Notes: generated from the letters alone by a model not told the origin. Positions 3,352 through 29,880 are shown, numbered from the stretch's first letter. The stretch is 32,000 bases of DNA from Ruminococcus albus 7 = DSM 20455 (GCF_000179635.2 NC_014824.1:150001-182000), one strand, 5' to 3'. Numbers and translations are program-made.

Positions 3352-3445
3352 GCGGTTTCACCTCATCAGTGAGGGCATAAAAAAAGCACCTGCCGTAACA
3401 AGTGCTAATAGACTTACTTTAGAGGGTAATAGGTTTCATTTTATA

Positions 3446-4720
3446 TTATTTTCTCGCGATTTCATGCATATATTCGGATAATTCGTCTGCTTGAATCATT
3501 GGGCTGCTGTGACCACCTTCAAATTTAAAAAAACCTTTTTCAGGCGCTTCTATTCTTTCATAATAATCACATGCAAATGAATACATTGTATCAGGATTTC
3601 GATCTTTTTCCCCCTCAAGCAGATAAAAAGGTACCTCGTATTTGCATTCTTCATCAATCGACATATCTTGTTCCATCTCGTCACTCTTTGCTCCCAATCG
3701 TTTTATGTATTCCTCATACTCACATCCATTTATATATGTATAGTCTATATTCTTTTCTGGTTTTTCTATTTGATTTTTTAGATATCTGTCGTGAAGCATT
3801 TTAGATTGTTCTAAAGTGATATAAGGATTTAGAAGTAGCCAATCGTCCATTTTTTCATTTGAATCAGGATATTTACAGCAATCCTCTAAAACTTGAGTAA
3901 GTCTTTCTAATTGACTATCATTATCATCTAATGGATCATCTTTCAAGTCATTTGGATTAAAAGATTCCACTAAAGTTAAATATTCTTCATTATTTTTTAC
4001 TTTATCTAAAGTTAAGAGATAATCTTTAAGATAATGTCTACTTTCTATTTCGTCAACAACTAATGAAGCAACAATTAATTTATCATACTTTTCTGGATGT
4101 TCTAAAACTAAATTAGCAGCAAAAATAGACCCCCACGAATGTCCAAATAAAGTAATTTTCTCCTTATGCAAGCAATCACATAAATAATTAGTCATTGCAA
4201 TTCCATCTTGCATCATGACGTCTTTGGTAAGAGGGCTGACTTCTTGGAATTGTAAATTTTCATGATAACTATGACCACATCCACGTTGATCCCAAATAAC
4301 AACGGTGTATACATCACTTAGTTTTCTAAGAACGCCCCAATCATAATAACTCGTTGCTGAACAGGGACCACCATGAAGATATAATAGAACTGGATTATCG
4401 CGATTCTCTCCATATATGCTGATCCATTGTATCGATTCGTCTATATCCTCTTGTTTCATTTCGCTTATATCAACTTTTTCCTGTTCATCTAAATCAACAA
4501 AATAATTTTCATTAATTCCACCATTGGGAGTTTTTAAATACTGTTCCCGCTTTTTTCTGATTTCATCGATATCGATTGAGTTTAGTTTTTGGATAATGCT
4601 TTTCTCCTCATTATACTTTTGATAACAATAAACAATAGAACATATTATGATACTGATAGCCAGCAGGGTTGCTATTATAAATAAAAATTTATTTATTCTA
4701 TTTATTTTATTTGATGACAT
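3446..4720 (-). CDS. Membrane-anchored alpha/beta hydrolase (prolyl aminopeptidase-like family)
   Basis: 424 aa. N-terminal TM helix (FLFIIATLLAISIIICSIVYCY), oxyanion LYLHGGP, and nucleophile elbow GHSWGS. Confidence 0.85.
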   Translation of the reverse strand: MSSNKINRINKFLFIIATLLAISIIICSIVYCYQKYNEEKSIIQKLNSIDIDEIRKKREQYLKTPNGGINENYFVDLDEQEKVDISEMKQEDIDESIQWISIYGENRDNPVLLYLHGGPCSATSYYDWGVLRKLSDVYTVVIWDQRGCGHSYHENLQFQEVSPLTKDVMMQDGIAMTNYLCDCLHKEKITLFGHSWGSIFAANLVLEHPEKYDKLIVASLVVDEIESRHYLKDYLLTLDKVKNNEEYLTLVESFNPNDLKDDPLDDNDSQLERLTQVLEDCCKYPDSNEKMDDWLLLNPYITLEQSKMLHDRYLKNQIEKPEKNIDYTYINGCEYEEYIKRLGAKSDEMEQDMSIDEECKYEVPFYLLEGEKDRNPDTMYSFACDYYERIEAPEKGFFKFEGGHSSPMIQADELSEYMHEIARK

Positions 4721-4963
4721 ACTATAACCCCTTTGAAATGGTATAAATGTATTATAACAAGTATACTAGAAAATGTCAATCAGAAGGAATCAAAATCAGC
4801 CTGTCAAGCAACCTCATGCTAAGATTCACGTGAGACAAAGTCGAAAACGCTGACAGGTACGATGGGTTAGAGGATGTTCAAATAGAAGTCTATTATAATA
4901 AAATAATAGATACACCTGATAATGATAGAGAAACGGTTTCAGCTGGGAAATTTTTCATTGAAC

Positions 4964-5077
4964 CTAATGAATTTGGCTTTGAATAGCATTTCCGATCTTG
5001 TCGGCAAGAGGTAATTTCTGCGCTTTATCTATGAAGTTAGACAAAGGCTTATAATCAGCATAAAACCAAGTACACAT
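4964..5077 (-). pseudogene. N-terminal remnant of a second SRAP (SOS response-associated peptidase) gene
   Basis: ATG at 5077 sits 5 nt after the yolD-like stop. It reads MCTWFYADYKPLSNFIDKAQKLPLADKIGN, which parallels the N-terminus of the intact SRAP at 8477-9163 (MCTWFYVEKSTLSPIITKAQQLPLTNTIMN). The similarity then ends and a stop follows. Confidence 0.6.
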
Positions 5078-5082
5078 ACTGG

Positions 5083-5496
5083 TCAGCACTCCCCTTTGAA
5101 CTCTATCTTGAATATATCCTGAATGTTTATCCTGAACCTGTCTTTGAAGACAAGCTCCTGAGAATAGCTGTCAAATATCCTCACTACACCGACCTTTTCC
5201 CCATACTTACCGCCTGACTTCTTCTCATCGGGTACGAAGTAGGTAACGCTGATCTCCGGTTGTTCGTCCAAGCTGTCAAGCAGCCGGTTAAGATTATCGT
5301 TTAGCTCAGACATTTCGTCCTCTGTCATTACGGTTCTGCTGTCGGTCAGCCTTGCTGTCTCGGCTACTGCATCATCGTAACCAACGAGAGCCGCAAAAGG
5401 ACTGAACTGTGCCGCTCTGTCGCTCATGGACATAGGGTGCAGATCGTCATACTGCGGACGGGTGAGGTGTTTTATATCGTCGTAATTATTGGGCAT
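5083..5496 (-). CDS. YolD-like protein (accessory protein of Y-family polymerase operons)
   Basis: 137 aa. Has the characteristic MSMSDRAAQFSPFAALVGYDD motif. GAGGTG SD upstream. Lies in an operon with a Y-family polymerase. Confidence 0.8.
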   Translation of the reverse strand: MPNNYDDIKHLTRPQYDDLHPMSMSDRAAQFSPFAALVGYDDAVAETARLTDSRTVMTEDEMSELNDNLNRLLDSLDEQPEISVTYFVPDEKKSGGKYGEKVGVVRIFDSYSQELVFKDRFRINIQDIFKIEFKGEC

Positions 5497-5511
5497 AGCG
5501 TGTTCACCTCA

Positions 5512-6021
5512 TCAAAGTAAATGTAAGAATGAAATAATCAAGATACTCTCAAAAACAGTTCCAAGAATTGATTCAAATATTGCTTCACAGATGTCACTGA
5601 AAACTATAATCATCTGCTCCAGATTATTCCTATTGATTTTGATTTTTAGCTGTGTGCCTATTTCCCACTTTTTTATCGAAAATGACCTGAATACTTTTTC
5701 TTTATGTTTTTTATTTTTGTAATCAACATATTCTGTTATATAAACTGTGTGTAAGCCTCTACCCATTCGTATATATTCTGTATCTGTTATCGTGCAAGTT
5801 GAAGCGTATAGATGCTTTCTGTTTTTTAATATAAAGAATAACAGCTTAATGGTTCTGTTAAAAAACATATAGCCAATAAACAGAATCAAAATTGTCATCC
5901 AAATAAGAATTCTAAGACGTTCGATATTAAAACGTGCAATAGCAGATATTGCGCATATAAACGAGCATAGTATAAAAATTGCTACTGCGATTCTTTCATA
6001 TTTAGTAAAATTGTTGTGCAT
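5512..6021 (-). CDS. Hypothetical membrane protein (2 N-terminal TM helices)
   Basis: 169-aa ORF, visibly more AT-rich than its flanks. TM helices are IAVAIFILCSFICAISAI and ILIWMTILILFIGYMFF. No family recognised. Confidence 0.55.
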   Translation of the reverse strand: MHNNFTKYERIAVAIFILCSFICAISAIARFNIERLRILIWMTILILFIGYMFFNRTIKLLFFILKNRKHLYASTCTITDTEYIRMGRGLHTVYITEYVDYKNKKHKEKVFRSFSIKKWEIGTQLKIKINRNNLEQMIIVFSDICEAIFESILGTVFESILIISFLHLL

Positions 6022-6077
6022 AAAACACCTCTATACTGATAAATCACGATTCATAACGCACAGCAGAGGAATGCATC

Positions 6078-7571
6078 TCAAGCTTTATGTCCACCCACGG
6101 TTTTATTGCGTTCCCGAGCCGTAGCACCTTCCGTAAAATTCGTACCTTTAAGAACGGCATTCTTTCCGAATTTGTGTTTGATCGTGAGCATCGCTTCCTG
6201 CAATGCTCTTTCTTTTTCAAGCGCCTTCTCATCATCCTCGTGATTCTGTATGGTTTCCTCCGTATCGAACAGGGAAAGCTGTTCGTAGCTTTCGCTCTCA
6301 GGCACATCGCTCTCCTTGATGACGTTGCAGGCAACAAGGTTGATCCGCCTTGCAAGTAGCGTTTTATCGAAAATACGGTCAAAAAGTGCCATTGTCGCTT
6401 CGACCATCTTCCTTGTGGACGATGTGTGCTTATCAAGATTCTGTGTACCGTGAGCGTGTTTGGGAACATTTCTGCCGTAACGGTCGGAAACCACTTCGCC
6501 CTGATAGTGACCGTCCGCAAGGCTCTCACGGTCATAGCCGACGGTCAGCACGATCTGATTCGTCACAAGCCCTTTATCCACCAGGTCAAGCGACAGCATA
6601 TCCGCCATTTCCCACACGATCAGCCGAGTACGCTCATAGTCACAAGGCTCTTGCAGGACTTGTCCTGATGTGATACTCTGATTTTCCGGACGGTAAGCTT
6701 TTACATCAGCTATGGTAGTTGGTTCAATGCCCCAGGCATGATCTATCAGCAGCTCTGCATTCTTGCCGAGGAGCTTATACAGCTTTCCGATATGATAGCG
6801 GTCAAGCGACCATCTTGCAATATCCCCCATAGTGTAGATATGGAGTGTTTCAAGGCGTTTTGCTATGCCTGCACCTACTCTCCAGAAGTCTGTTATCGGT
6901 GTGTGCGACCACCATTTATCCTTATAGGTCTGCTCATCAAGCTCTGCAATACGCACTCCGTCCTTATCCGCAGGAATATGCTTCGCCACAATATCCATAG
7001 CTACCTTGCACAGGAACATATTTGAGCCGACTCCTGCCGTAGCCGTAATACCTGTTGTATCGAGAACGTCCTGTATCAGCATACGGGCAAAACCGTGACC
7101 ATCAGTGTTGTAGATGCTGAGATAGCCTGTGGCATCAATGAAAACTTCATCGACCGAGTAAGCAAAAATATCTTCGGGAGCAACGTATTTCAGGTAAATG
7201 CCGTAGATCTGAGCGCTCACTTTCATATAGTGCGCCATTTGCGGGGTTGCTACCACATAATCAACGGCGAGGGAAGGATTCTGCACAAGCTCCGAGTAAA
7301 TGCAGCTCTTGTCAGTGAGCTGTCTGTTGGGAGCTTTCTTCTGCCTCTGTTCATTGACCTCTTTCACACGCTGTACGACCTCAAACAGCCTTGCTCTGCC
7401 CGAAATACCGTAGCTTTTGAGTGACGGCGAAACGGCAAGGCATATTGTCTTTTCGGTACGGCTCTGATCTGCTACCACAAGATTTGTGTTCAGCGGATCA
7501 AGCCCAAGCTCTACGCACTCTACCGAAGCATAGAAGGATTTGAGGTCTATCGCTACATATACCTTGTTCAT
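6078..7571 (-). CDS. Y-family (translesion) DNA polymerase, UvrX/ImpB-like
   Basis: 497 aa. N-terminus VYVAIDLKSFYASVECVELGLDP and SVDEVFID are typical Y-family palm motifs. Confidence 0.9.
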   Translation of the reverse strand: MNKVYVAIDLKSFYASVECVELGLDPLNTNLVVADQSRTEKTICLAVSPSLKSYGISGRARLFEVVQRVKEVNEQRQKKAPNRQLTDKSCIYSELVQNPSLAVDYVVATPQMAHYMKVSAQIYGIYLKYVAPEDIFAYSVDEVFIDATGYLSIYNTDGHGFARMLIQDVLDTTGITATAGVGSNMFLCKVAMDIVAKHIPADKDGVRIAELDEQTYKDKWWSHTPITDFWRVGAGIAKRLETLHIYTMGDIARWSLDRYHIGKLYKLLGKNAELLIDHAWGIEPTTIADVKAYRPENQSITSGQVLQEPCDYERTRLIVWEMADMLSLDLVDKGLVTNQIVLTVGYDRESLADGHYQGEVVSDRYGRNVPKHAHGTQNLDKHTSSTRKMVEATMALFDRIFDKTLLARRINLVACNVIKESDVPESESYEQLSLFDTEETIQNHEDDEKALEKERALQEAMLTIKHKFGKNAVLKGTNFTEGATARERNKTVGGHKA

Positions 7572-13190: not shown

Positions 13191-14498
13191 TCAACCTACC
13201 ATTGACGCAAATGCTTTCCAAAAAGCTTTTCGTTCTTCATCCCAATTATTTCCTGCCGCGTGTGCCTCTGTACGTTCAAGGAAACCATGAATTGCAGGAT
13301 TATCATGCTCTGATCGTGATAGAATAGCCAATGTACCATCTTTCTTTTGTCCTACATGGTGAAGTTCATAAGAAATTCCATTTGAGTCTTGCGGAGCTAA
13401 TCCCTCTTTCATTCGTTGCAAATTCGTTCTTCCCTTTGAGTCAATCCTAGTAAGATCAATATCACTTTTTATCAAAGCAGATTTATTCCCAACCATTGTT
13501 GATTTTAGGTTGGCATCTTTAAACACCTGATATTCTTCCATGTTGTGAAATTCTTTAATAACATCCAAAGGGTATTTTGTTTCTCGCTGTATCTTTGCAT
13601 ATTGGTTCATTGTGAACTCCGTTTGTTTTGCTGAACCATAAAGCGATTTCCCTTCACTGACGCCGCCTAAAACCGCCCCAGTGATTGCTCCCCATTTGAA
13701 GCCTTCAGATGCTTCGAGAGTAGCAGCTTTTGCCATTTCTTTGACATTTCTGGTTTCAATGCCCTTGACAATAGCAGCTGATACACCACCTAAAGCAGCA
13801 GATTTAATAGCAAATGTTGTTGCTTCTTTTGCGGAACCCGCAATTATCATACTCACAGCATGTGCGCCAACACCTGGAGAAACTACAGATACAGTCACAC
13901 AAATCAAAATAACTCCAGTACCAATAGCGACATTACGCATAACTGTATCGTAGGTGTTATCTCTGAATGCAGCCATCTCCTGCACAGTTGTTTGTCCATT
14001 TTCATCAAGGGTAAATATGTACTTTTGACCTTGAAATATCTCATTAAGCTCTGATGCCTTATATCCAAAGTAAATATTTTCCTGGGAGTTGAATTCTATT
14101 TCTTCATAGTATTCTTTAGGCATATACGCCGCCTGTACGTTTTCAACGAAATAATCATCACTGCCTAGTTGTTCAACAAGTTCTGAATAGACCGAATCTT
14201 CAACATACCGCAGTAGTTCCGGATCATTCATTGTCAAAAAACTAATATTTTCAATGTTATCCTGAATATCTGAAATACACTCTGATACGGAACTATCTCT
14301 CTCGTCAACGGCCGAACATGTAATATCATTTTCATCAGCATGGTCTTTAGAAGATATTTCATCATTTGTTTTGGAAATCTCATCATCGATGATTTCTGAT
14401 GACGCAGTATCGCTTACATTTATTTCAATCTCGGTATCTCCTGCACACCCTGTAAGCAGCATTGCGCATGATAGAAATAAAGCAATTACTCGTTTCAT
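13191..14498 (-). CDS. Polymorphic-toxin lipoprotein with a C-terminal HNH/EndoVII-fold nuclease domain (LHH type)
   Basis: Start at ATG 14498, with GAGAGG SD 7 nt upstream. Lipoprotein signal MKRVIALFLSCAMLLTGC. A central Gly/Ala-rich hydrophobic segment resembles a pre-toxin region. The C-terminus reads GLAPQDSNGISYELHHVGQKKDGTLAILSRSEHDNPAIHG. A SUKH immunity gene follows. Confidence 0.8.
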   Translation of the reverse strand: MKRVIALFLSCAMLLTGCAGDTEIEINVSDTASSEIIDDEISKTNDEISSKDHADENDITCSAVDERDSSVSECISDIQDNIENISFLTMNDPELLRYVEDSVYSELVEQLGSDDYFVENVQAAYMPKEYYEEIEFNSQENIYFGYKASELNEIFQGQKYIFTLDENGQTTVQEMAAFRDNTYDTVMRNVAIGTGVILICVTVSVVSPGVGAHAVSMIIAGSAKEATTFAIKSAALGGVSAAIVKGIETRNVKEMAKAATLEASEGFKWGAITGAVLGGVSEGKSLYGSAKQTEFTMNQYAKIQRETKYPLDVIKEFHNMEEYQVFKDANLKSTMVGNKSALIKSDIDLTRIDSKGRTNLQRMKEGLAPQDSNGISYELHHVGQKKDGTLAILSRSEHDNPAIHGFLERTEAHAAGNNWDEERKAFWKAFASMVG

Positions 14499-14521
14499 AC
14501 ACATACCTCTCTTTTATGCAA

Positions 14522-18080: not shown

Positions 18081-18278
18081 TTACATCTTCGGATAATCTA
18101 TGTTGTTTTCCTCCAAAATGGATCTGAGTTCGTCAATGTACACATACAGTCTCTGAATCTCAATCCAGTTTCCGTGGCACAACCTGTCTGCCTCTTCAAG
18201 TTCGTGACGGGTCAACTCATAATCTTCCCATTTCAGGCATTTGTGATCTTTGCTGAAGGCGCAGTAATTTTCCATCAT
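18081..18278 (-). CDS. 65-aa hypothetical ORF coupled to istB
   Basis: Its ATG overlaps the istB stop (ATGA at 18275-18278). The protein is Cys/His-containing (MMENYCAFSKDHKCLKWEDYELTRHELEEADRLCHGNW...). No family recognised. Confidence 0.4.
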   Translation of the reverse strand: MMENYCAFSKDHKCLKWEDYELTRHELEEADRLCHGNWIEIQRLYVYIDELRSILEENNIDYPKM

Positions 18279-19021
18279 GACTCTGCCTCCTTCGCCTGCA
18301 ACTCACGCATATTGATGTCACCTGAATACACCCAAGCAGCAGTATGTACGATCCTGTCCATGATCGCGTCAGCGTGGATACCGCCGCCAAGACGACTGTG
18401 CCAGTCCTCGCGTTTGTACTGTGTACAGAAGATCGTTGAGGTGCAGTCATAACGGCGCTCGATCAGTTCAAAAATGAAGTGCTGTTCGCTTTCTGTCATG
18501 TCGTTCAGAAGCCATTCATCAAGAATCAGCAGACGGTATCCGCTGAACTTCTTCAGGAGTTTGGCTCTGCCATGTATATCCAGTGATGCTTCACTGAGCA
18601 GCTGCATGAGATCCGGAACCCTGATATACCTTGTGCGAAATCCCTGCATACAAGCCTGTCTGCCAATAGCACACGCAAGATAGCTCTTGCCGGAACCAGT
18701 GAATCCGTTGAACACGACCGGCTGGTTCTTTTCGATGAAGCCGCAGGTCCCAAGCGCCAGGATCAGATCCTTGTCCAGTCCGCGCTTTTCATAGTACACG
18801 TTCACAAGCACAGCATCCGCAATACGAAATTTTGCTGCATTGATCAGACGGTGGACCCTGGCATTGTATTTGGCTGAATAAGTATAATCAACAGCGATAT
18901 TCATCCGTTCATCAAATGAAAGCGCCATATATTCCGGCTGCTTTTCCTGAAAATCAAGGGCTTCGACCAATTCGCCAAGATTCATTTCACGCAACTTACG
19001 TCTTGTTTCCTCACTCAGCAT
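18275..19021 (-). CDS. istB: IS21 helper ATPase IstB
   Basis: Start at ATG 19021 with GGAGGTG SD upstream. Walker A GFTGSGKS and Walker B LLILDEW are present. It overlaps the istA stop by 11 nt. Confidence 0.9.
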   Translation of the reverse strand: MLSEETRRKLREMNLGELVEALDFQEKQPEYMALSFDERMNIAVDYTYSAKYNARVHRLINAAKFRIADAVLVNVYYEKRGLDKDLILALGTCGFIEKNQPVVFNGFTGSGKSYLACAIGRQACMQGFRTRYIRVPDLMQLLSEASLDIHGRAKLLKKFSGYRLLILDEWLLNDMTESEQHFIFELIERRYDCTSTIFCTQYKREDWHSRLGGGIHADAIMDRIVHTAAWVYSGDINMRELQAKEAES

Positions 19022-19943
19022 GACCGTCACCTCCGTAATAGGCAGCACCACGCACAAATCCAGCGGATGACGATCCATTTTCTTGCTTCTTGTTTTCCTT
19101 GTATTCCACATCCTGACCGGAGGCAAGGATCGCTTTTAGATGCGAATAGCGCGGCACACTGACATGTTCAATCGCCAGTTCACAAGCCATTTCCAAACGT
19201 TCGGACGAATACTTCTTACTCAGCTTCAGTACTGACATTGCGGGGTTGATGCCCTGTTCAGAGGTGCGGTAACTCTTGAAAATACGGTCAGTGACAGTCA
19301 ATGTCTGCTTGCCGATGGATGCAGCCCACTGCCGGAGCGTAAGCTCATTCCATTCCGTTGCCTGGAATCTTTCAGGGATGTCCTCCAGGTAGGTGTCGTA
19401 CCTATTGCGGACATAGCTTGGAAAGCGCTTGTGAGAAGAAATACGTTCATGACCGCAGTATATCTCGATCATGCTGTCAGTGATCTTCAGATCAACTGTC
19501 TTGCCTACGAAACGATACGGCACGGAGTATTTACAGGTCTGGTAGGTCACATGAAAATCCGAACCTATGACACGTCCGTATTCCCACACAGCGTATTCAT
19601 ACGGAAAGGCAGGCAGCGGATGAAGAGTGATTCTCTCATTCACTTCAAAGATCTCACGGCGACTGCCTTCACGCTTTTGAAAGGGCTTGTTGTTGAAATT
19701 CTCCAGCGCTGCTGCAACATCCGATTTCAAATCGATCATAGAAGTATATTCGCTGTTGCGAAGACGGGCGATGATAGCTGTAGCGATCTTTCCGACAGTG
19801 CCTTCAACAGATGCCTTCTGCTTCGGCTTTTTCACGCCTGCGGGCATGATCGCCGTACAGTAGTGATTGGAAAAATCCTCATAGGATTTGTTCAGAACAA
19901 TATCGCCTTCGCGGGGATGTGTGATAACACCGGTCTTAAGATT
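19011..19943 (-). pseudogene. istA: IS21 transposase IstA, C-terminal portion (gene split by the nested insertion)
   Basis: Reads ...LKTGVITHPREGDIVLNKSYEDFSNHYCTAIMPAGVKKPKQKASVEGTVG... from the junction at 19943 down to the stop at 19011. Confidence 0.85.
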
Positions 19944-19970
19944 TAATGTAAAGAGGATGTTAATGTAAAG
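19939..19970. repeat. Left terminal inverted repeat of the three-recombinase element
   Basis: agatt TAATGTAAAG aggatgt TAATGTAAAG is the perfect 32-bp reverse complement of 23341-23372. A further inverted copy, CTTTACATTA, lies at 20015-20024. Confidence 0.8.
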
Positions 19971-20068
19971 CTGAATAAAAATAGATCTAAAATCTAATGA
20001 TTATAGGTATTCGACTTTACATTAATATGATATAATTGGATCAATCATAGAAAGGAGGAATTATCATC

Positions 20069-21301
20069 ATGATTGATTCCAGTTACTCAATGACACTGTA
20101 TGATGCAATCCAACTGTTTCAAAGACACATCATACAAAACTGCGGATCTGAATCCAAAACAGCACAGGCTTACATTCGGATCTCTAATGATTTACAGCGG
20201 TATGCTAAAGAAACGGATTTGGAGGTTTCTCCGGAAGATGTGATCCAAGAATACTATCGTATTATCGTCGGGGTCCCTGCATTTGAAGCTGTTCCGTCAA
20301 AATCAAAAGAACGTCGAGGAAGAGCTGTTCAGATGATTCTGGATATCCTTAATGGAAAAGAACCTAAGAGAAAGTATACCACCCATAAGCGTGATTGTCC
20401 CATTACGTACCTGAATGTCATCAGAAAATATGAAACTTTCATGAGAAATGACCAAAAGAGCGATGGCACAGTACGCACGAGATCCGGACGAATCACTGTG
20501 TTTTTTGCTTTTCTTGAGGAGTGTAAATGTACATCATTAGAGGGCATCACGCCGGAGCTGTTTGCAAGATTTGTATCGTCCCTCAATGATAGGTATTCAT
20601 CACAGGGAAAAGCGTCCATTTTGTATACGTTAAGGAATTTCTTTTCCTATGATGAGTTCTCAGGAGCGCTATCTTTCGATCCGATTCCCTTTTTGACAGG
20701 GATTCATTCCGGAAAGCATGAAAGACTCCCATCCTTTTACACGGCAGAAGAAGTAAGGCGTATCCTGAATGCTGTCGACAGGAATACCCCATGGGGAAAA
20801 ACAGTCTATCTTATGATGCTTTTGGCAAGTGTGTACGGTTTTCGCTCAAGCGATATCAAAGCAATGGTTCTTGACAATATAAACTGGAAAAATCGCACAA
20901 TAAATATCACGCAGTACAAGACGCACAAAGAGATTTCCCTTCCCATGACAGATGAGATCCTTTTTTGCACTCCTTGACTATATTAAGAATGTGCGTCCTG
21001 AGTCAGACTGTTCGAATGTGTTCATCCGACTTAGAAAACCGTACATTGCATACTCAATGAATGATCACTTTGGCGACAAGATATTACCGTTTTTTGAAAT
21101 TGCCGGTGTTGATACAAAGGTAAACATCATGGTCTGCATTCTTTAAGGCATAGTTTGGCAACAAACCTTTTGGTTTCAGGAACCCCGATAAATGAGATTG
21201 CTGTGATACTTGGACACACATCTGCGGCATCCACAAAAACTTATGTATGGTCAGATATAGAGCATCTCCGAGCAGCAGCATTGGAGGTGCCTAAAAAATG
21301 A
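20069..21301 (+). pseudogene. Tyrosine recombinase 1 (RitA-like) with two frameshifts
   Basis: AGGAGG SD upstream. The frame breaks at the T6 run 20961-20966 (+1) and at GG 21119-21120 (-1). The corrected reading gives ...GKHHGLHSLRHSLATNLL...LGHTSAASTKTYVW, i.e. the R-H-R-Y box. Confidence 0.75.
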
Positions 21302-22277
21302 TCAATGACAAGGAATTTCTTAAATTTGAAGAAGGTTTTTCAAACCATATTTTGAAAAATTCATAGAGTTCAAGCGTGGAAAAGGTGAAAAAGTTGCTCA
21401 TTCAACCATGGTTCGCTTAAGGAAACTGAACAATTCGCTTAATACTTACTATGAACACCATATATCTGACCAGATGGTGGAGGAGTTACTGGCTCCTCGT
21501 GATGGATTAAGCGAATTAGAACGCCAATATCTTACAGCGAATCTCCGCCAGTTTTGTTCTTTCTTGGCGCTTCTCGGAATTGATGCGGTCATCGTCCCAC
21601 GAAAATATATGCGAACGGTAAAGAGTGAATTTCGTCCGTACATTTTCAGCGACGATGAACTGCGCCGTCTGACTATTGCAGCCGACACGCTTCCTGCATC
21701 AAGAAAGTCGAGCTCGCATCAGCAGATATACCCAGTGCTCGTCAGATTACTTATAGGTACCGGAATGCGCATAGGCGAAGTCCTTGCACTGAAGCGGGCG
21801 AATGTTGACACTTCAAACGGTGTGATCAATGTTATCAACGGTAAAAATGGCGTTTCAAGATTTATTCCTGTATCCGACAGCTTGAAAGAAGTCCTATTTG
21901 ACTATGCCAAGACTATAGATATGTCTGATGAGAATAGACCGTTTTTCACTTCCTCCTACACCGGTGGTCATCTTACATATGATGCTATGAAATATATGTT
22001 TCCAAAGATGTTTAAGACGGCAGGCATACACAAGTCAGATGGTAAGACGCCAAATATCCATTCTATCCGGCATACATTCTGCACCAAAAGTCTGGAAAAA
22101 ATGTTGGAAAACGGAATGAATGTCTATACTGCTATTCCAATACTGGCGGCATACGTCGGACATGTGAATTACATAGATACAGAAAAATACATTCATTTCA
22201 CAGAACAGGGACATACGGATTTCTTGCAGAAAGAATCATCCTTGGGGAGTCTATTCCCGGAGGTGGACAATGAGTGA
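21298..22277 (+). pseudogene. Tyrosine recombinase 2 (RitB-like) with one 5'-proximal frameshift
   Basis: ATG 21298 overlaps the stop of recombinase 1 (ATGA). MINDKEFLKFEEGFSNHI then hits a stop. The frame resumes (KFIEFKRGKGEKVAHSTMVRL...) after the T4 run at 21350-21353. Catalytic motifs GMRIGEVLAL, HSIRHTF and GHVNYIDTEKYIH are present. Confidence 0.7.
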
Positions 22278-23274
22278 TAATTTATTCTTCTATATACAAC
22301 GATATTTTATGTCTTACCTAATGAAACAGCATAATTACGGCCCTAATACTGTTTCATCATACCGAGACACCTTTAAGCTTTTGCTTAAATTTATGTCAGA
22401 ATCCGGTAAAAGCATATCAAAGAAAACTGTTGATGAGATTGACTGCGATGTAGTACTCAAGTTTCTCTCTTGGCTTTCGAATGTCAGGAAAAATGGGGTG
22501 CCTACCCAAAATGTAAGATTGGCACATATAAAATCATTTTTTCGATATGTAATGATGATCTCACCTGAATACTCCGGGCAATGCAGCGAAATACTCAGTA
22601 TACCATTTGCAAAGGAAGATAAAAGGCTTCCTGATTGTATGTCTACGGATGCTATAAAGCAAATGCTTTCATCGATCGACTCATCATCTAACGAGGGACT
22701 AAGGCATTTGGCAATCTTATCCCTTATGTACGATTCAGCTTGTAGGGTTCAGGAAATCATTTCACTAGATGTCAAAGACTTTCAGCCGGGTCAATGCTGC
22801 AGGATATATGTGCATGGTAAGGGAAATAAATATCGCACCATTCCGTTACTGGGAAAAACAGAAAAAATCATCTCAAAATATATCAGGCAATTCGGTCTTA
22901 TGCAAGAGTCCCCAATGTTTTGCAACAGGAATGGTGACCGGCTAACAAGGCAAGGCATCCGCTACATAATAAGGAAATACTCTAAGTTGGCAAACGATAC
23001 GGTTCCCGGTATTATAACCGGCTCTGTATACCCACATCGATTACGCCACAGTAAAGCCACACACCTTGTGGACAATGGCGTAAACATTTATAATGTCAGG
23101 GATTTCTTGGGACATGAGTCTGTTGCAACAACTCAGATTTACCTGTCAACGAATCCGGAAGTTATCAGAAAGGCTATCGAGACAGTAGCTGAGAAAACAG
23201 TATCAGAAAGCCTTGATTTCTTTTCAGACAAAGAAAAGGACGATTTGATTTCCTTCTTGGATTCACTAGGATAA
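22270..23274 (+). CDS. Tyrosine recombinase 3 (RitC-like), intact
   Basis: 334 aa. It overlaps the previous gene by 8 nt. Motifs present: ACRVQEIISL, HRLRHSKATHLV and GHESVATTQIYLS. Confidence 0.85.
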   Translation: MSDNLFFYIQRYFMSYLMKQHNYGPNTVSSYRDTFKLLLKFMSESGKSISKKTVDEIDCDVVLKFLSWLSNVRKNGVPTQNVRLAHIKSFFRYVMMISPEYSGQCSEILSIPFAKEDKRLPDCMSTDAIKQMLSSIDSSSNEGLRHLAILSLMYDSACRVQEIISLDVKDFQPGQCCRIYVHGKGNKYRTIPLLGKTEKIISKYIRQFGLMQESPMFCNRNGDRLTRQGIRYIIRKYSKLANDTVPGIITGSVYPHRLRHSKATHLVDNGVNIYNVRDFLGHESVATTQIYLSTNPEVIRKAIETVAEKTVSESLDFFSDKEKDDLISFLDSLG

Positions 23275-23340
23275 CACGCATTTGTTAATGTAAAGTAGGT
23301 CATGATGGAATGCCGATCAGACTTTCATTGAAACGGCCGA

Positions 23341-23372
23341 CTTTACATTAACATCCTCTTTACATTAAATCT
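23341..23372. repeat. Right terminal inverted repeat of the three-recombinase element
   Basis: CTTTACATTA acatcct CTTTACATTA aatct. It is followed by an extra TAATGTGAAG CTTTACATTA pair (23374-23393) and then GAGATT (23394-23399). Confidence 0.8.
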
Positions 23373-23399
23373 CTAATGTGAAGCTTTACATTAGAGATT

Positions 23400-24026
23400 G
23401 TCGCAGACGACACGCAGCGTAACGCCGCCGAAATACTCAAACATATGAATATTGCAGTTGATCCATGTCTGCTCGTTCATATTCAGGCAGGGCTCGACAT
23501 ATGCAAGCTGACTGTACGGGAGTGCTGCGACAAAAAGATACACAGGATACACCTTACCTTCTTCCGGATCATGAAGCCGCATCGTCTTGCCGCTCCAGTC
23601 CACTTCACATACAACACCGGGCTTATGGGCGATGTGGTTGGTGAGATCGTTCTGCTCGACATACTTGGTATAGTCATCGCAGAATTTTGTGTATCCTACT
23701 GTAACGCCATCTTTCACACCGTCCTTGTATTCCTGCCAAAGCAGCTTGAGAGTGACACCGGTCTTCTTCAGCTCAGTGTGGACGTACTCGTAATTGACAG
23801 GTTCATATACCGTTTCCTTCCTGAACTTGTCCGGGAAGAAAAGCAGATACACCTCATCGTCACTCTTGTCTGCAACATCAGCATAACTGACACCGAGGTC
23901 ATCTGCCCTCTTCCATACTGATGCCACAGACTTGGTTGAAATATGCCTGGATGCTGCAATAGCCCTCTGCGACATATTTGCCTTACGAAGCTCCAAAAGA
24001 AGCTTCACATTGATCTTGTCTGCCAT
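23400..24026 (-). pseudogene. istA: IS21 transposase IstA, N-terminal portion (HTH and start of the DDE domain)
   Basis: Start at ATG 24026 (MADKINVKLLLELRKANMSQRAIA) with GAAGGAGG SD upstream. It runs to ...EYFGGVTLRVVCDN at the junction with the nested element. Confidence 0.85.
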
Positions 24027-24082
24027 ATTTATGGCCTCCTTCGTGTAGATTCGAGGCATAGCCTCTACCTACATTATACACG

Positions 24083-25334: not shown

Positions 25335-26174
25335 TCAGTAAATCTTTCTTCCTTTTGCCTCGAATGCTCTATTTCCAGTTCTTCTTTGCTGAAAAACATA
25401 GAGCCTTTTTATATTTCCTCTATCACCAATGACAAAAACTCGCCTTATAATATTTACTGTATGCATAGGATTTGTAGTAGCGAAAACATTGATAGTTATA
25501 TCTTGTGGTAGTTTTCTTACTTCGTTTATAATATTTTTTATGAAATCTTGATTGAAATATCTACCAAAATCATTTCCGTCATTTCTACTTATTTTAATAG
25601 TAGGTAGATTCTTTTTAGTTGTTGGTATTTGATTATTTGAAATAGGGTATGTATCTTCAAGGATTATATTTACTTCACGAATATTTGCAACAATCCTTTT
25701 TTTGTCAATTTTAATAGTCTTGTTCTCTTCGATCGGATAGTCGCTTTCGATTAAAGGAAATTGATTAAAAACTGAGCGGGAAACTAATTTGAATTGCATG
25801 AAAATCGGAACTAATATCAAGTTGCATTTTTCTATGTTTAAAAACTTAGCACAAAACAGATACCATATAAATGGATAGTTGTGATAGCAATTCGCTCGAT
25901 TTGCCATTTTTTCTTTATCGTGATTGTATTTTCTTATGGCAATTAACGCGGCTATAAACATTGCAATTGAAATGAAAAAACTTCCTTTTTCAATTGTAAG
26001 ATAATATATTGCATTTTCAGGAGTTGGATGGTCTTCTTCACTCAAATATTTTTGAAAGATACTTTTAATATCTATGAAATAAGGGAGGCAACAAACTATA
26101 ATCAATACTATTATTTCTGCAATTTGCAAACAATTATCTTTAATGAAATTAAAAATTTTATTTAGTTTTTTCAC
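25335..26174 (-). CDS. Multi-TM protein with a beta-rich ~150-aa C-terminal domain; candidate effector/sensor of the E2-E1/JAB cassette
   Basis: GTG start at 26174 with AAGGAG SD 8 nt upstream. TM helices are IAEIIVLIIVCCLPYFI and FFISIAMFIAALIAI, plus 1-2 weaker hydrophobic segments. The C-terminal domain is not assigned to any family. Confidence 0.8.
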   Translation of the reverse strand: MKKLNKIFNFIKDNCLQIAEIIVLIIVCCLPYFIDIKSIFQKYLSEEDHPTPENAIYYLTIEKGSFFISIAMFIAALIAIRKYNHDKEKMANRANCYHNYPFIWYLFCAKFLNIEKCNLILVPIFMQFKLVSRSVFNQFPLIESDYPIEENKTIKIDKKRIVANIREVNIILEDTYPISNNQIPTTKKNLPTIKISRNDGNDFGRYFNQDFIKNIINEVRKLPQDITINVFATTNPMHTVNIIRRVFVIGDRGNIKRLYVFQQRRTGNRAFEAKGRKIY

Positions 26175-26184
26175 AATAGACTCC

Positions 26185-26661
26185 TTATAACTGAACCTCT
26201 GTTTTGATTTCGATTATATCTTTTCCATTTGTGTACCAGCATCGAATCTCTTCCATTCCTACAATAATAAAGAATGATATATCGTAGTTCCTCTGTTCCT
26301 TTGCTTTTTTCTTCCAACTGTTTTTATCAATCCATGAAGGAGAAGGACATTTTTCTCTATGTGAATGCCATTCTCCTAAATAGCTTTTAACACTCTCTGA
26401 TTTTTCCCAGAGATCATCCATGATAGACTGATGAGCGGGATCTTTTCTTACGAAGCGGAACTTTGCCTGAATATCGTTTTTTTGAGGCCATGTAATATCA
26501 GTAACAACATAGGTGTTTTCTGTAGCATCATAATATCCGACAATAATACCGCCATATTCGACTGAAAAGCTATTTGTGCATTGGAATGATTTAAGAGATT
26601 TATAAACCTCTGGCGATATCTTTACCTTTATTGTTGATGCTTCATTTTGCACACCGGACAC
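26185..26661 (-). CDS. JAB/JAMM (MPN+) metallopeptidase, Cap3-like
   Basis: Complete JAMM signature: Glu in SVEYGGIIVG, then EWHSHREKCPSPSWID (HxH-x7-S-xx-D). The start is uncertain: GTG 26661, or GTG 26652 which has GAGGTG 8 nt upstream. It overlaps the E2-E1 gene. Confidence 0.85.
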   Translation of the reverse strand: MSGVQNEASTIKVKISPEVYKSLKSFQCTNSFSVEYGGIIVGYYDATENTYVVTDITWPQKNDIQAKFRFVRKDPAHQSIMDDLWEKSESVKSYLGEWHSHREKCPSPSWIDKNSWKKKAKEQRNYDISFFIIVGMEEIRCWYTNGKDIIEIKTEVQL

Positions 26662-28340
26662 ACCTCGATTGGTTCAAATGATTTTTGTACTATACCGTTA
26701 TACTTGGAAGAGGAGATACAGGCTTTATAATAATCTGATACAGCAAATCCATTGTTTTCAAGAGTTATTGAGTTGCCATACCATGATAAGAGAGTGCTTG
26801 TATTAGTTTCTCCTTTTAAAACGGATATACATAGTCTACTCGTTAGCAAGGCGGTTTGCTGGGTATCAAGTGAAGAATACTCAACATATGTTCCTGCACA
26901 ACCAGATATAGTTTTTGAAAAGTTCTGACCCTCTTTAACAAAACTCGTACTGAAAGAAATTAGTTCACCAGAGAGTATATCTGAATATAGACATCGTAAA
27001 CAGCCGCCTTGTGTTACGTTTACAGCTATTGCGTGACCTCCGATACCATAAGGCTCATTAAAGCATACGACAAAAGGAACAGATATTTTTTGCTCTATTA
27101 GCAGTTTATTTATTTCAAGGTTTATAGTCGGTTCGCCAAGTGCAGAAACAATCAAGTCATAATTTTTCAACCGTTCTGGCGTTTTTAATAGTTCCCGAAC
27201 ATCACGATTGACACAATTCATAGGATCAATTTCAGCGAATGGATAATGATCTTCAAGGTAATTAGACATAAGATCTGCTTTATTTTTTTCTTTTAGGGCA
27301 TCGCTGAAACCGAGAATATGTCTGTGAACATTTTCTACATATAGAATATCTTTATCAAGTATATCGATACAGCATAATCCAGACTGACAAAGATTAGCGG
27401 CGACGTATCCACCAACTGAGCCACATCCAAGCAATAAAACACGCTTATCTTTTAAATTTGACGGGGTTCCTGTTTTAAGTGTCATATATTCATAATCAAT
27501 CATTTTAATTGAAAGGGGTTTTACTTTGCTATCATTTACTTTTTCGAGAATTTTATAAGAATTTCCTTTCCGGTTTATACTGAAACCGACAGGAATGTCT
27601 CTTTTCATACCTGGAATCATTAAAATGATAAATATACGGAAAGTCTTATACTTGTTTTTTAGTATTTTTTTGAACTTAGCTTTTTGACTTGATGTAGTGT
27701 TTTGAAGAATAAACAGCCTTAACCATTTCCATGTATATACGTCTTTTATAGGAATGGAAACGAATTTACTTAGTTTTATAAAATACGTTTTGATAATGTA
27801 AGGACTGTCTGTTCTTTCATTAAAGTAGCTGTCAAGAATTGATAATGACAGTTCCTTATTGTCCGATAAAACAATCTTATGATTTATGCATACAGAGTCA
27901 AGCAGCTCAAAAGAATTAAAAGTATACTTTGGAGTAACCATGTGCAATTGCAACAGGCTACGTTCTCCCCAGTAAGCATTGAATTCTTTTAGTATTTCTG
28001 ATGTGTATTGTGTACTACCAGGCTCGATACTTAGTATTTCTACTGCACGATCGAAAGCATCGAGCAGAATAATATACGGATCAACAGAATTTATCAGTAA
28101 AGATGAGTTTTCAAACAAACAAAGCTTATTATCTTTATCAACGTGGGGATAAAACCTCTTACTGTTTTCAAGATAGAAGAAAGGAAATTCCATGGGAAAG
28201 TGATTGTTGAAGCTTATTCTTAGTTCAAGACTCTCGGTTCCAATTGATACTTTCCCGTGAAATTCATCCGTAGTTTCTGGTACGTGAGAAAATCTTACAT
28301 TTCTATCTCGATTAAGCTGTTCAATGTAATTCTCTATCAT
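26628..28340 (-). CDS. E2-like (UBC fold) and E1-like (ThiF/MoeB adenylation domain) fusion protein, Cap2-like
   Basis: 570 aa. The N-terminus has the prokaryotic E2 pattern HFPMEFPFFYL...FYPHVDKDNKLCLF. The centre has RVLLLGCGSVGGYVAANL (Rossmann fold) followed by ENVHRHILG. The C-terminal part has CLRC and CPVC zinc motifs. Confidence 0.85.
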   Translation of the reverse strand: MIENYIEQLNRDRNVRFSHVPETTDEFHGKVSIGTESLELRISFNNHFPMEFPFFYLENSKRFYPHVDKDNKLCLFENSSLLINSVDPYIILLDAFDRAVEILSIEPGSTQYTSEILKEFNAYWGERSLLQLHMVTPKYTFNSFELLDSVCINHKIVLSDNKELSLSILDSYFNERTDSPYIIKTYFIKLSKFVSIPIKDVYTWKWLRLFILQNTTSSQKAKFKKILKNKYKTFRIFIILMIPGMKRDIPVGFSINRKGNSYKILEKVNDSKVKPLSIKMIDYEYMTLKTGTPSNLKDKRVLLLGCGSVGGYVAANLCQSGLCCIDILDKDILYVENVHRHILGFSDALKEKNKADLMSNYLEDHYPFAEIDPMNCVNRDVRELLKTPERLKNYDLIVSALGEPTINLEINKLLIEQKISVPFVVCFNEPYGIGGHAIAVNVTQGGCLRCLYSDILSGELISFSTSFVKEGQNFSKTISGCAGTYVEYSSLDTQQTALLTSRLCISVLKGETNTSTLLSWYGNSITLENNGFAVSDYYKACISSSKYNGIVQKSFEPIEVCPVCKMKHQQ

Positions 28341-28344
28341 AAAA

Positions 28345-28524
28345 TCAAGCGGATTCAGATGTTCCTACATAACTGCGGTCTGCTTTGATTGGAAAGTCGT
28401 TCCCAAAAATTTGAGCCAACACTTTACAAGCTTCAGATTTTTTATCGGTATTCTCAACTTCTGTTAGCTTTGATTTCATAGTGGTTAATTTGCTATGGAA
28501 ATCATCTTGCTGATTCTCAGTCAT
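28345..28524 (-). CDS. 59-aa ORF directly upstream of the E2-E1 gene: either a gene remnant or a small substrate/partner protein
   Basis: Below the ORF-track cutoff. The sequence is MTENQQDDFHSKLTTMKSKLTEVENTDKKSEACKVLAQIFGNDFPIKADRSYVGTSESA. Its stop lies 4 nt before ATG 28340. No SD precedes either in-frame ATG (28524 or 28479). Confidence 0.3.
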   Translation of the reverse strand: MTENQQDDFHSKLTTMKSKLTEVENTDKKSEACKVLAQIFGNDFPIKADRSYVGTSESA

Positions 28525-29880
28525 CTTACTGAAGAGATTGTTTTTTGGTTCAACAGGAAGATTTTGACTAACTCTATTCTGGTTTCCGGCGGACAGACCA
28601 CTGTTGCTAACTTGTTTTACAACATGGGAAGACGACAGGTTGGTCTTGTAGGACTTTGGGATGTAGTTGCTTTTGACGAAGTAGCTGGCATCAATTTCAA
28701 AGATAAAGACGGCGTTCAGATCATGAAGGACTACATGGCTTCCGGTTCATTTGCAAGAGGTAAGGATGCTATTCAGGCTAATGCTTCAATGGTGTTCGTA
28801 GGTAATATCAATCAGAGCGTGGATTATCTTTTGAAGACTTCACATCTGTTTGAACCGTTTCCTGATGCAATGATAGACAGCGCATTCTTTGACAGAATGC
28901 ATTGCTATATTCCGGGATGGGAAATTCCTAAGATGCGTCCGGAGTATTTCACAGATAATTACGGATTCATTTCTGATTATCTTGCAGAGTTTATGCGTGA
29001 AATGAGAAAGGTTCCGGAAACAGATGCCTTTGATAAATTCTTCAAACTCGGCAGATGTCTGAATCAGAGAGATACTATCGCTGTAAGAAAGATGGTATCT
29101 GGTCTGACAAAGCTTATCTACCCTGATGAAAAGTATACCGAAGAAGACATGGAAGAGATTCTGAGATATGCTATCGAAGGACGTAGAAGGGTTAAAGAGC
29201 AGCTGAAGAAAATCGGCGGTATGGAGTTCTATGATGTACAGTTCTCGTTTATCCGTAATTCAAATATGGAAGAGGTAAACGTTCCAGTTCTCGAACAGGG
29301 CGGCGGCAAACTGATTCCTGAAGGAACGGGAAAAGCAGGACATGTATATACCGTTGCTAACGGAACCAACGGCATGATGGGACTGTTCAAGTTTGAGAGC
29401 ACTATGACAAACGGCAGTGGCAAATTCGATGTTACTGGTATGCAGAGTGCCAAGGAAACAAAAGAATCCGTAAAAACAGCTCAAAACTACTTTAAAGCTA
29501 ATGCTAAACATATCAGTGCTTCCATATCTACTGACAGCAGGGATTATCTGATGCACATTCAGGATTGTCAGGGAGTAGGTCTTGACAGCAATATTTCGCT
29601 TCCTGCATTGGTTGCATATTGCAGTGTGGCTATTGACAAGCCTATTCTGCCTCAGTTATGCGTACTCGGCTCTATGAGTATAGGCGGAACTATAAACCCT
29701 GTAGAAGAGCTTGCATCAACACTCCAGGTTGCTTTTGATGCTGGTGCAAAGAGAATTCTAATCCCGATGAGCAGCGCAGCAGATATACCAACCGTACCGG
29801 CAGAGCTGTTTGCAAAGTTCCAGATTTCGTTCTACAGTAGTCCGGAGGATGCGGTTATTAAGGCGTTAGGAATTGAGTAA
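28495..29880 (+). pseudogene. brxL: 5'-truncated BREX Lon-like protease BrxL (Walker A and the whole N-terminal domain are missing)
   Basis: From about nt 28570 the protein matches my memory of BrxL closely: NSILVSGGQTTVANLFYNMGRRQVGLVGLWDVVAFDEVAGINFKDKDGVQIMKDYMASGSFARG...GWEIPKMRPEYF...RRRVKEQLKKIGGMEFYD...Lon-like C-terminus. The first 25 codons are unrelated. An in-frame TAA at 28486 closes the frame upstream. No other BREX genes are in the window. Confidence 0.85.

Follow-up and report, generated by a model that had tools for sequence, protein, structure and literature searches.

A trio of tyrosine recombinases inside an IS21 transposase gene of Ruminococcus albus: a RIT element with a fixed target, a palindromic end and a proposed circular route of movement

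The stretch of 32,000 nucleotides from Ruminococcus albus 7 = DSM 20455 analysed here (GCF_000179635.2, NC_014824.1:150001-182000; hereafter the window, whose numbering we use) holds an istA transposase gene of an IS21 element that is cut in two by an insertion with three tyrosine recombinase (YR) genes. This raises the questions of what the insertion is, why it lies at exactly that codon, and by what route such an element could have arrived there. Since 2009, recombinase-in-trio (RIT) elements have been recorded from many bacterial phyla. They are described as elements of ~3.5 kb with an inverted repeat (IR) of ~28-34 bp and an "overlapping palindromic sequence", and they have been reported inside radC, IS66 tnpA and a Tn6049-type transposase gene, with a mobility that was never reproduced (PMC3414803, PMC2864759, PMC10214605); their target specificity and mode of movement are given as not tested (PMC10214605, Table 1). 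We propose, with somewhat more belief than doubt, that the window holds a 3456-bp transposon moved by its own three tyrosine recombinases, which homed to the Asp-Asn codon pair of an IS21 transposase gene by way of a circle with a double palindromic core, carrying a hexamer over in a polar manner.

The insertion occupies 19944-23399 (3456 bp) and splits istA between ...VVCDN and LKTGV.... On the minus strand, the 5' part of istA (23400-24059) reads ...TLRVVCDN, its own last codon being the GAC of VVCD directly before the insertion, and the 3' part (19011-19937) begins KTGVITHPREGD... Against the NCBIfam IS21 transposase profile, the two pieces match positions 3-186 and 185-294, respectively; because these matches adjoin, the pieces abut with nothing lost between them, and the halves join to ...TLRVVCDN-LKTGVITHPREGD... 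A first-pass annotation, made from the sequence alone, had placed the split between the same residues, and its element limits and inferred target, aAGATT, likewise agree with our analysis. Uninterrupted IstA relatives with 90-91% identity read TGCGAC-AATCTT-AAGAC (L027; L numbers are our handles for loci) and TGCGAC-AATCTC-AAGAC (L028), which is the empty site, GAC/AATCT(T/C)/AAGAC, predicted for an intact istA.

The ends of the element are built from one 10-mer. The terminal inverted repeat at 19939-19970 and 23341-23372 (32 nt, 100% complementary) is as perfect as had been claimed. Inside the element limits, its left copy (19944-19970, plus strand) consists of two direct arms TAATGTAAAG separated by a 7-bp gap, AGGATGT, and its right copy (23341-23367, plus strand), CTTTACATTA-ACATCCT-CTTTACATTA, is the exact reverse complement. 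A third, inverted arm follows at each end, at 20015-20024 on the minus strand, 44 bp inside the inner arm, and at 23286-23295 on the plus strand. Together with the palindromic end described below, there are seven perfect copies of TAATGTAAAG (at 19944, 19961, 20015(-), 23286, 23341(-), 23358(-) and 23384(-)) and an eighth with a single mismatch at 23374, which agrees with the at least eight that the first-pass annotation had counted. All eight lie within ~115 nt of the element ends, and the rest of the 32-kb window contains just three one-mismatch matches; with one-mismatch copies included, 11 are present in the window where 4.2 are expected, a number reached in none of 100 shuffles. The third inverted arm stands 44-45 bp inside the inner arm at both ends (19961-20024; 23286-23350), a spacing conserved in all members of the window family; these arms could be an accessory binding site or serve ritA autoregulation. 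A scan for promoters and terminators at the left element end found nothing.

The right end carries more than the repeat. A 32-bp palindrome at 23368-23399 (16+16 nt, one mismatch) has at its core a 20-bp palindrome, TAATGTGAAG/CTTTACATTA, centred on AAGCTT (23374-23393, no strand assigned), with a hexamer on either side. The outer hexamer, which we call S1 (23394-23399), is GAGATT on the plus strand and AATCTC in the istA sense, that is, on the minus strand; the inner hexamer, S2 (23368-23373), is AATCTC on the plus strand and GAGATT in the istA sense. The hexamer of the palindrome-free junction, S3 (19938-19943), is AAGATT on the plus strand and AATCTT (Asn-Leu) in the istA sense. Read in the istA sense, the order is thus S1 (23399-23394), palindrome (23393-23374), S2 (23373-23368) and, beyond the recombinase genes, S3 (19943-19938). 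S2 is a target-type hexamer in inverted orientation and forms part of a second core of two 10-bp arms around 6 bp (10-6-10), at 23358-23383. Several points of the first-pass annotation are refined by this layout. The ends had been called symmetric, which holds for the inverted arm pattern but not for the 20-bp palindrome and one hexamer that the right end has in addition. AGATT is present at both junctions, as had been said, but the repeated unit is the hexamer, in which AAGATT (19938-19943) and GAGATT (23394-23399) differ by one base. The internal core in opposite orientation at 23358-23383 does exist, and rather than being incidental it is the second core around the 20-bp palindrome.

The element is a true RIT element. 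Its three genes, all on the plus strand, are a ritA-like gene (20069-21301; 410 aa when intact, here with an extra T at 20961 and a missing A at 21115), a ritB-like gene (21298-22277; 326 aa when intact, here with a missing T at 21335) and an intact ritC-like gene (22270-23274, 334 aa), which we refer to by their products A, B and C. ritA and ritB overlap by the 4 bp ATGA and ritB and ritC by 8 bp, all three encoded proteins have a Phage_integrase domain, and there is no fourth gene in the element. The catalytic residues of A (R259, H357, R360, H383, Y392) are invariant in 41 homologues, and translation gives the catalytic motifs GMRIGE, HSIRHT and GHVNY...KYI in B and ACRVQE, HRLRHS and GHES...IYL in C. 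In BLASTP comparisons with the trio of plasmid pHG1 (PHG134/135/136), A matched RitA (2e-31), B matched RitB (3e-31 and 2e-29) and C matched RitC (4e-56), with cross-family matches of 2e-14 or weaker; the pairing is one-to-one and reciprocally best, as the RIT-like label of the first-pass annotation had implied it should be. Two sequential core-binding domains have been reported as unique to RitA, and an extra C-terminal helix has been described for RitC (PMC8138268). An AlphaFold (AF2) model of A, built on a 41-sequence alignment (pLDDT 83), predicts four-helix bundles at 5-94 and 112-191 and a catalytic domain at 226-405, and these two N-terminal bundles would fit the RitA description; Pfam recovers a SAM-like domain at 121-194 only. 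The C protein continues for ~40 residues past the catalytic Tyr and aligns end-to-end with pHG1 RitC (9-333 vs 11-332).

The size of the element, its 32-nt perfect IR and its 32-bp end palindrome agree with the published description of RITs, and so does the arrangement of the palindromic end. The pHG1 RIT, inserted in an IS66 transposase gene, reads ...WPISNN/CGCGGT/TCATGCCGCT-AGCGGCATGA/ACCGCG/TTATGCCGGC-7-TTATGCCGCG, that is, S1-palindrome-S2-IR as in the window, with a palindrome that follows its own IR arms. Because this RIT shares the layout, we regard S1-palindrome-S2-IR as a RIT hallmark. The idea that the 20-bp palindrome is better conserved across families than the IR arms was dropped, since the pHG1 palindrome tracks its own IR arms and since our metagenome set was itself chosen by palindrome. 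A search of the literature for the palindrome sequence gave no matches. In pHG1 (L152, 8345-17678), what looks like one RIT trio lies inside the ritC of another; an inverted partial copy of a trio abuts the IS66 transposase gene, and the called IS66 open reading frame (ORF) reads through the palindrome into the RIT.

Whether the position and the layout seen in the window are a rule was addressed with relatives. An exact look-up of the C protein returned 12 contigs that carry the identical protein, several of them element-length unitigs of 3430-3431 nt, one of which recurs in 17 samples, suggesting a multi-copy repeat. When species-representative genomes were scanned, 13 related loci turned up, whose proteins are 73-99% identical to C; they come from Ruminococcus, Butyrivibrio, Mediterraneibacter, Blautia, Hespellia and other hosts. 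The 20-bp palindrome, used as the pattern in a scan of metagenomes, yielded at least 120 loci, and two further protein look-ups added 16; the comparison set comprised 168 loci. The junction counts below rest on the matches listed in the metagenome scan, on the genomes and on the look-ups, with duplicates removed, and about 50 independent sister insertions were compared. Complete insertions of the window family read flankN(...GAY)-S1-TAATGTRAAG/CTTYACATTA-S2-[TAATGTAAAG-7-TAATGTAAAG...ritABC...CTTTACATTA-7-CTTTACATTA]-S3-flankC(AAR...), where flankN and flankC are the sides of the target gene that encode the N- and C-terminal parts. The arm-7-arm layout of the ends is present in all relatives, and in every related copy examined the joined ends would rebuild arm-6 bp-arm, with arms that are constant across copies and 6 bp that vary. 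The first-pass annotation had reconstructed such a 10-6-10 core by joining the two ends of the window copy; the constant arms and variable 6 bp support that core, and the relatives extend it to a double palindromic one.

The target is the second catalytic Asp of IS21 transposases and the Asn that follows it, and insertion there is strictly site-specific. All window-family junctions lie at this Asp-Asn codon pair in differing istA genes. Among the matches listed, 33 of 33 distinct palindrome-side junctions follow a GAY codon and have an S1 that starts with AAn, and 20 of 20 distinct palindrome-free junctions have AAn and then a codon for Lys or Arg; with all captured families included, the listed palindrome-side junctions number 61, with 57 differing flank sequences. 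The IstA subtypes hit include ...VCDN-LKTGV, ...VPDN-LKTGV, ...LTDN-MKSVV and ...VPDN-CKTAV, and at the DNA level the conserved part of the target is just GA-AA...AA with a few neighbouring bases.

Orientation follows a rule as well. The palindrome adjoins the N-terminal flank of istA in all 33 distinct junctions among those listed, with the recombinase genes pointing in either direction. In a lineage whose ends can be told apart by their 7-bp spacers (GAACTAT at the ritA end and TGGCTGT at the ritC end), the palindrome lies by the ritA end nine times and by the ritC end ten times, and two copies at the same position of the same IS21 (L018 and L039) have opposite gene orientations. Because the genes insert both ways and the palindrome stays N-terminal, the palindromic end is the Asp side of the target rather than a right end of the element.

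The hexamers are polar. Among the matches listed, 12 different S1 hexamers occur between the invariant arms, all of the form AAYNNN. In most copies S1 and S3 are the same and repeat the Asn-x codons of the target itself; any differences between them fall in hexamer positions 3-6 only. In all cases with a judgeable native hexamer, the foreign hexamer is at S1, and no foreign S3 was seen among the 20 distinct palindrome-free junctions, of those listed, where the native hexamer could be judged. One insertion (L039) has AACATG (Met) at S1 and AACCTC (Leu) at S3; since its sister in the same IS21 (L018) has AACCTC on both sides, and since DNLK stands in 106 of the 106 uninterrupted relatives of the window IstA where the motif was located, its S1 is foreign and its S3 native. 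A second (L023) has AACTGC (Cys) at S1 and AACATG (Met) at S3, and the nearest intact IstA reads DNMKSVV, encoded by GAC AAC ATG AAG. A third (L154) has AACCTG at S1 and AATCTT at S3; two other copies (L157/L158), which share its S2, GGTATT, and have AACCTG at S1 and S3 alike, are likely of the donor type. A foreign S1 is also present in L021, L153/L156 and L155. For the IS21 that hosts L012, the relatives found by tblastn among plasmids have DNLK but reach no more than 48% identity and do not reveal the native residue.

S2 appears to keep a record of an earlier target. Its reverse complement is AAYNNN in the tabulated window-family junctions and equals S1 in about half of them, against ~12% expected from hexamer frequencies; some S2 match another known target hexamer, as in L019, whose S2, reverse-complemented, is the L018 target. 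In the window, the S3 hexamer AATCTT is also found at this flank in L019, in L159-L164 and in the intact L027, and S1 AATCTC occurs with its reverse complement as S2 in the Ruminococcus copies L011, L014 and L015 as well. To judge by these comparisons, S3 of the window is probably the native target hexamer, and S1 was probably carried in from a previous site.

These regularities suggest a route of movement. The layout, the target site and the orientation and polarity rules are direct results of the comparison; the circle, the cut positions and the assignment of each protein to its binding site belong to the proposed model. The element would leave as a double-stranded circle with the joint IR-arm/6 bp/palindrome/6 bp/IR-arm; joining the ends would create an 86-bp palindrome that is nearly perfect, with two opposite 10-6-10 cores that share the 20-bp palindrome. 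The predicted joint between the ends is ...CTTTACATTA-NNNNNN-TAATGTAAAGAGGATGTTAATG, preceded by TAATGTRAAG, or in general form CTTTACATTA-NNNNNN-TAATGTAAAG. The 10-6-10 geometry is present at 23358-23383 and across the joined ends, and more than 50 junctions vary in the 6 bp alone, as would be expected if strands were exchanged in this spacer; the cuts are predicted at the hexamer borders. Either core could pair with a target GAY/AAYNNN/AAR, and the polarity of the hexamer, with its conserved AAY first, would set the alignment of the sites; such a fixed alignment would place the palindrome and the unused core always beside GAY, with the genes either way. Exchange would begin at the flankN side of the hexamer, as a single strand or in a fixed order, so that the circle's hexamer becomes S1 and the native one stays as S3, and the unused core would keep the older target hexamer, inverted, as S2. 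A fixed strand order, or a single strand exchange resolved by replication, is inferred because the opposite S1/S3 pattern is absent. A transposon of the DDE type that duplicates 5-6 bp of its target was rejected, there being no DDE gene and S1 differing from S3 in several copies.

Several points weigh against this circular route. The IR-6-palindrome-6-IR joint, whether from a circle or from a tandem, was not found in the 168 loci, and a mobilome study, in which RIT DNA was enriched after exonuclease treatment but no circles could be reconstructed, proposed hairpins instead (PMC5737581). For the polarity rule there are three cases with an independently established native hexamer and about five more by a subfamily argument, and the native hexamer of the window itself is probable, because its intact relatives, at 90-91% identity, carry either AATCTT or AATCTC. 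The target flanks of the window family are unlike the element arms. Much of the set was retrieved by its palindrome, and elements with other palindromes or with none are under-sampled. Contigs in which two flanks meet head-to-head (L035, L061, L102, L084) also fit an exchange at the centre of the palindrome.

These contigs belong to a group of variant structures. In one isolate genome (L021) and several metagenome contigs (L046, L048, L103), each end bears a palindrome and both flanks are N-terminal; others (L020 and L160-L163) have no palindrome and two C-type flanks. Both types may be the products of homologous recombination between copies with opposed gene blocks. In L035, L061, L102, L128 and L084, two N-terminal flanks are joined head-to-head through one palindrome with no element between them. 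In L084, a contig of 4020 nt, the palindrome at 2001-2020 is the contig centre and the printed flanks are mirror images, so that the whole contig is probably a palindrome. The head-to-head contigs could be hairpin or fusion products, excision products of the two-palindrome type, or assembly artefacts. A separate exchange at the palindrome centre, as an account of L021, L046, L048, L103 and the head-to-head contigs, was dropped as evidence, because homologous recombination between opposed copies followed by hexamer excision gives the same structures. At the right junction of L160-L163 (~6800 in L160), the palindrome-free end lies in a KAP NTPase gene beside a QatB gene, before ...VVLIDDLDRC, and the other flank is the C-terminal part of an IS21; this looks like an off-target insertion that was then rearranged. 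On a 1.1-Mb contig, two differing RIT trios are adjacent in opposite orientation (L155, 1-3300 vs 3441-6890; see also L153, 7081-8296), and RITs may cluster or target one another.

The alternative that survives best, unlikely in our judgement yet the strongest of the three we weighed, is a linear intermediate with hairpin ends, for which the palindrome would be a site of telomere resolution or fusion. One end would join the target by hexamer exchange, and the hairpin-capped chromosome end would then fuse with the other hairpin, producing the palindrome on the N side. Protelomerases are relatives of tyrosine recombinases, which counts in its favour, as do the zero spacing of the palindrome and its symmetric AAGCTT centre, the perfect 32-bp palindrome that S1-palindrome-S2 forms in about half of the junctions, and the contigs with two flanks head-to-head through the palindrome, of which L084 is probably palindromic over its whole 4020 nt and is centred on it. 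The exonuclease protection of RIT DNA that was not circular points the same way (PMC5737581). However, this model predicts the same integrated structure as the circle, and the data do not require hairpins; the head-to-head contigs would also arise from homologous recombination with hexamer excision, or from misassembly at a 32-bp palindrome. In many copies, two to four bases separate S2 from the reverse complement of S1, which argues that the palindrome arms were not made by copying, and a chromosome break would be required as an intermediate.

Less plausible still is an attachment site folded from a single strand, in which the 86-nt palindromic joint would form a hairpin with the 10-6-10 core as its stem and undergo one strand exchange with a double-stranded target that replication resolves, like the attP of CTX phage or the attC of integrons. 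The joined ends would indeed make a long hairpin, and the right-end palindrome by itself folds at -9.6 kcal/mol (z = -4.0); where the S hexamers do not match, a bubble would open at the centre, as it does in CTX attP, and the strictly polar way in which hexamers are deposited is consistent with one strand exchange. The element has no gene for rolling-circle replication or conjugation from which single strands could come, though, all three recombinases have full catalytic motifs, and a double-stranded circle with ordered exchange accounts for the same data.

The state of the window copy bears on a last alternative. Compared with near-identical intact copies (L002, L004), it has three substitutions and three 1-nt homopolymer indels, and these indels, at 20961, 21115 and 21335 in T or A runs, are exactly the three ritA/ritB frameshifts. 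These could be genuine mutations that inactivate the genes, or else errors of sequencing; because of them, this copy is either inactive or mis-sequenced. We give very little credence to the view that the element is an inert relic, a decayed fossil in a dead IS21 whose repeat pattern says nothing of an active mechanism: the frameshifts in ritA and ritB and the inactivation of the host IS21 itself speak for it, but intact copies just three substitutions and three homopolymer indels away exist as element-length unitigs, the one that recurs in 17 samples suggesting several copies per genome, and dozens of independent insertions are present in different IS21 elements.

The circular route with its double core, which we continue to prefer, may extend beyond the window family. 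Among the matches listed, other families in the metagenome set have the same layout, with the IR arms TAATGGAAAG, TAATGACAAG, TTATGTGAAG and ATATGCGAAG, and different targets, which we identified by rebuilding the interrupted genes and scanning them with Pfam. IS21-type transposases are interrupted at ...EKG-x-VE..., the IstA KG-x-VE motif (L033, L064, L098, L110, L122), a Mu-type transposase at ...GKIER... (L055, L072) and IS91 Y2 transposases at the His-x-His motif ...H-I-H-C... (L075, L120). IstB ATPases are hit at two places, Walker A GxGKT (L114, L134, L104, L124, L056) and Walker B LLVIDD (L057, L079, L082). The S1/S2/S3 rules look alike in these families, for example, in L055, L072, L079, L114, L120 and L124. 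In L134, the palindrome flank is an IstB from its N-terminus to Walker A and the other flank is an FtsK/TraG-like P-loop protein; this chimeric gene was probably produced by recombination between two RIT copies in different P-loop genes. The RIT targets seen are thus IstA Asp-Asn, IstA/Mu Lys-Gly-x-Val-Glu, IstB Walker A and B, IS91 His-x-His and IS66 Asn-Asn-Ala. A general homing strategy is rated probable and not established, because the sample was palindrome-selected. The broader statement, that RITs as a class are homing "parasites of parasites", each family of which recognizes the DNA for an invariant catalytic motif in the machinery of another mobile element and enters it through a palindromic double core, by a polar and probably single-strand-initiated exchange with a 6-bp memory, we hold in even balance.

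Around the element, the IS21 also retains istB, its helper ATPase gene, outside the RIT (18275-19126, minus strand; NF038214, 8e-54). A defence-like cluster beside the IS21 (25335-28340, minus strand) encodes a Prok-E2_B+ThiF fusion (E2/E1-like), a Prok-JAB protein and an SUa-2TM effector; no gene for a nucleotide cyclase is seen there, and the cluster is followed by a BrxL-type Lon protease gene on the plus strand (28495-29880). Elsewhere in the window are a gene for a protein with a C-terminal LHH nuclease toxin domain (13191-14504) and an ImpB/UmuC-type polymerase gene (6078-7571). The LHH toxin, the ImpB/UmuC gene, the IS21 and the RIT together suggest that the window is a mobile or variable genomic island.

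Taken together, the window and its relatives supply the limits of the element, the exchange hexamers, a predicted joint, the target and rules for orientation and polarity, and they make RIT target choice and movement directly testable. If true, the class-wide reading would give the first working model of RIT transposition and would explain the need for a symmetric joint and several recombinases. The suggested strategy, homing into sequences that other transposons cannot alter without losing function, resembles that of inteins and homing introns and bears on how mobile elements police or exploit one another, and the recombinases may be tools with defined, compact sites.

Compared with known systems, the predicted RIT joint, a long palindrome, recalls the protelomerases (TelN, TelK, ResT), CTX attP and integron attC, in which tyrosine-recombinase chemistry acts on palindromic or hairpin DNA; they serve here only as mechanistic rivals, for which the data offer the palindrome and some palindromic contigs (L084). 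Like loxP, FRT and dif/XerCD, the window element has two inverted ~10-bp arms around a putative 6-bp overlap. Unlike those simple cores, its two cores are fused back to back by a palindrome, and it has three recombinases where they need one or two; further arm copies lie 17 and ~55 bp inward of each end, and the target arms do not resemble its own. Tn916 and CTnDOT tolerate differing overlap (coupling) sequences and carry them along, and the window hexamers behave as such coupling sequences, in a polar way.

Tn554 and the SEs are multi-recombinase tyrosine transposons with target specificity. They deposit a 6-bp donor sequence on one fixed side of the insertion; a 6-bp "footprint" has been seen for Tn554, and for SEs the proposal is that one strand is exchanged and replication resolves the product (PMC10214605). 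In the window family, the polar S1/S3 pattern is the same kind of behaviour, which is shared behaviour and not membership. The gene sets differ, with TnpA, TnpB and TnpC in Tn554, IntA, Tfp, IntB and Srap in SEs and three YRs in the window element, where the Tn554/SE combination of an ordinary and a large YR with a TnpC/Srap-type protein was not found. Tn554 ends have imperfect inverted repeats only, and the perfect terminal repeat, 20-bp palindrome and double core of the window are absent from the Tn554/SE descriptions (PMC10214605); RIT proteins also fall in other YR subgroups than those of Tn554 and SEs (PMC8138268).

The closest likeness is to the RITs of Cupriavidus metallidurans CH34 and C. 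necator pHG1, which, like the window element, have the order ritA-ritB-ritC with short overlaps, proteins of ~410/320/330 aa, a length of ~3.5 kb, an IR of ~30 bp, a palindrome at one end and a position inside a transposase gene. These elements were reportedly described by Van Houdt (2009/2012) and Ricker (2013). The window element differs from them in its proteins (27-31% identity) and its Firmicutes host (Ruminococcus/Lachnospiraceae), in its target, the IstA Asp-Asn pair instead of IS66 NNA(E), radC or Tn6049, and in that its IR arms and palindrome arms are the same 10-mer. It is a new, IS21-targeting member of the RIT class from the Firmicutes.

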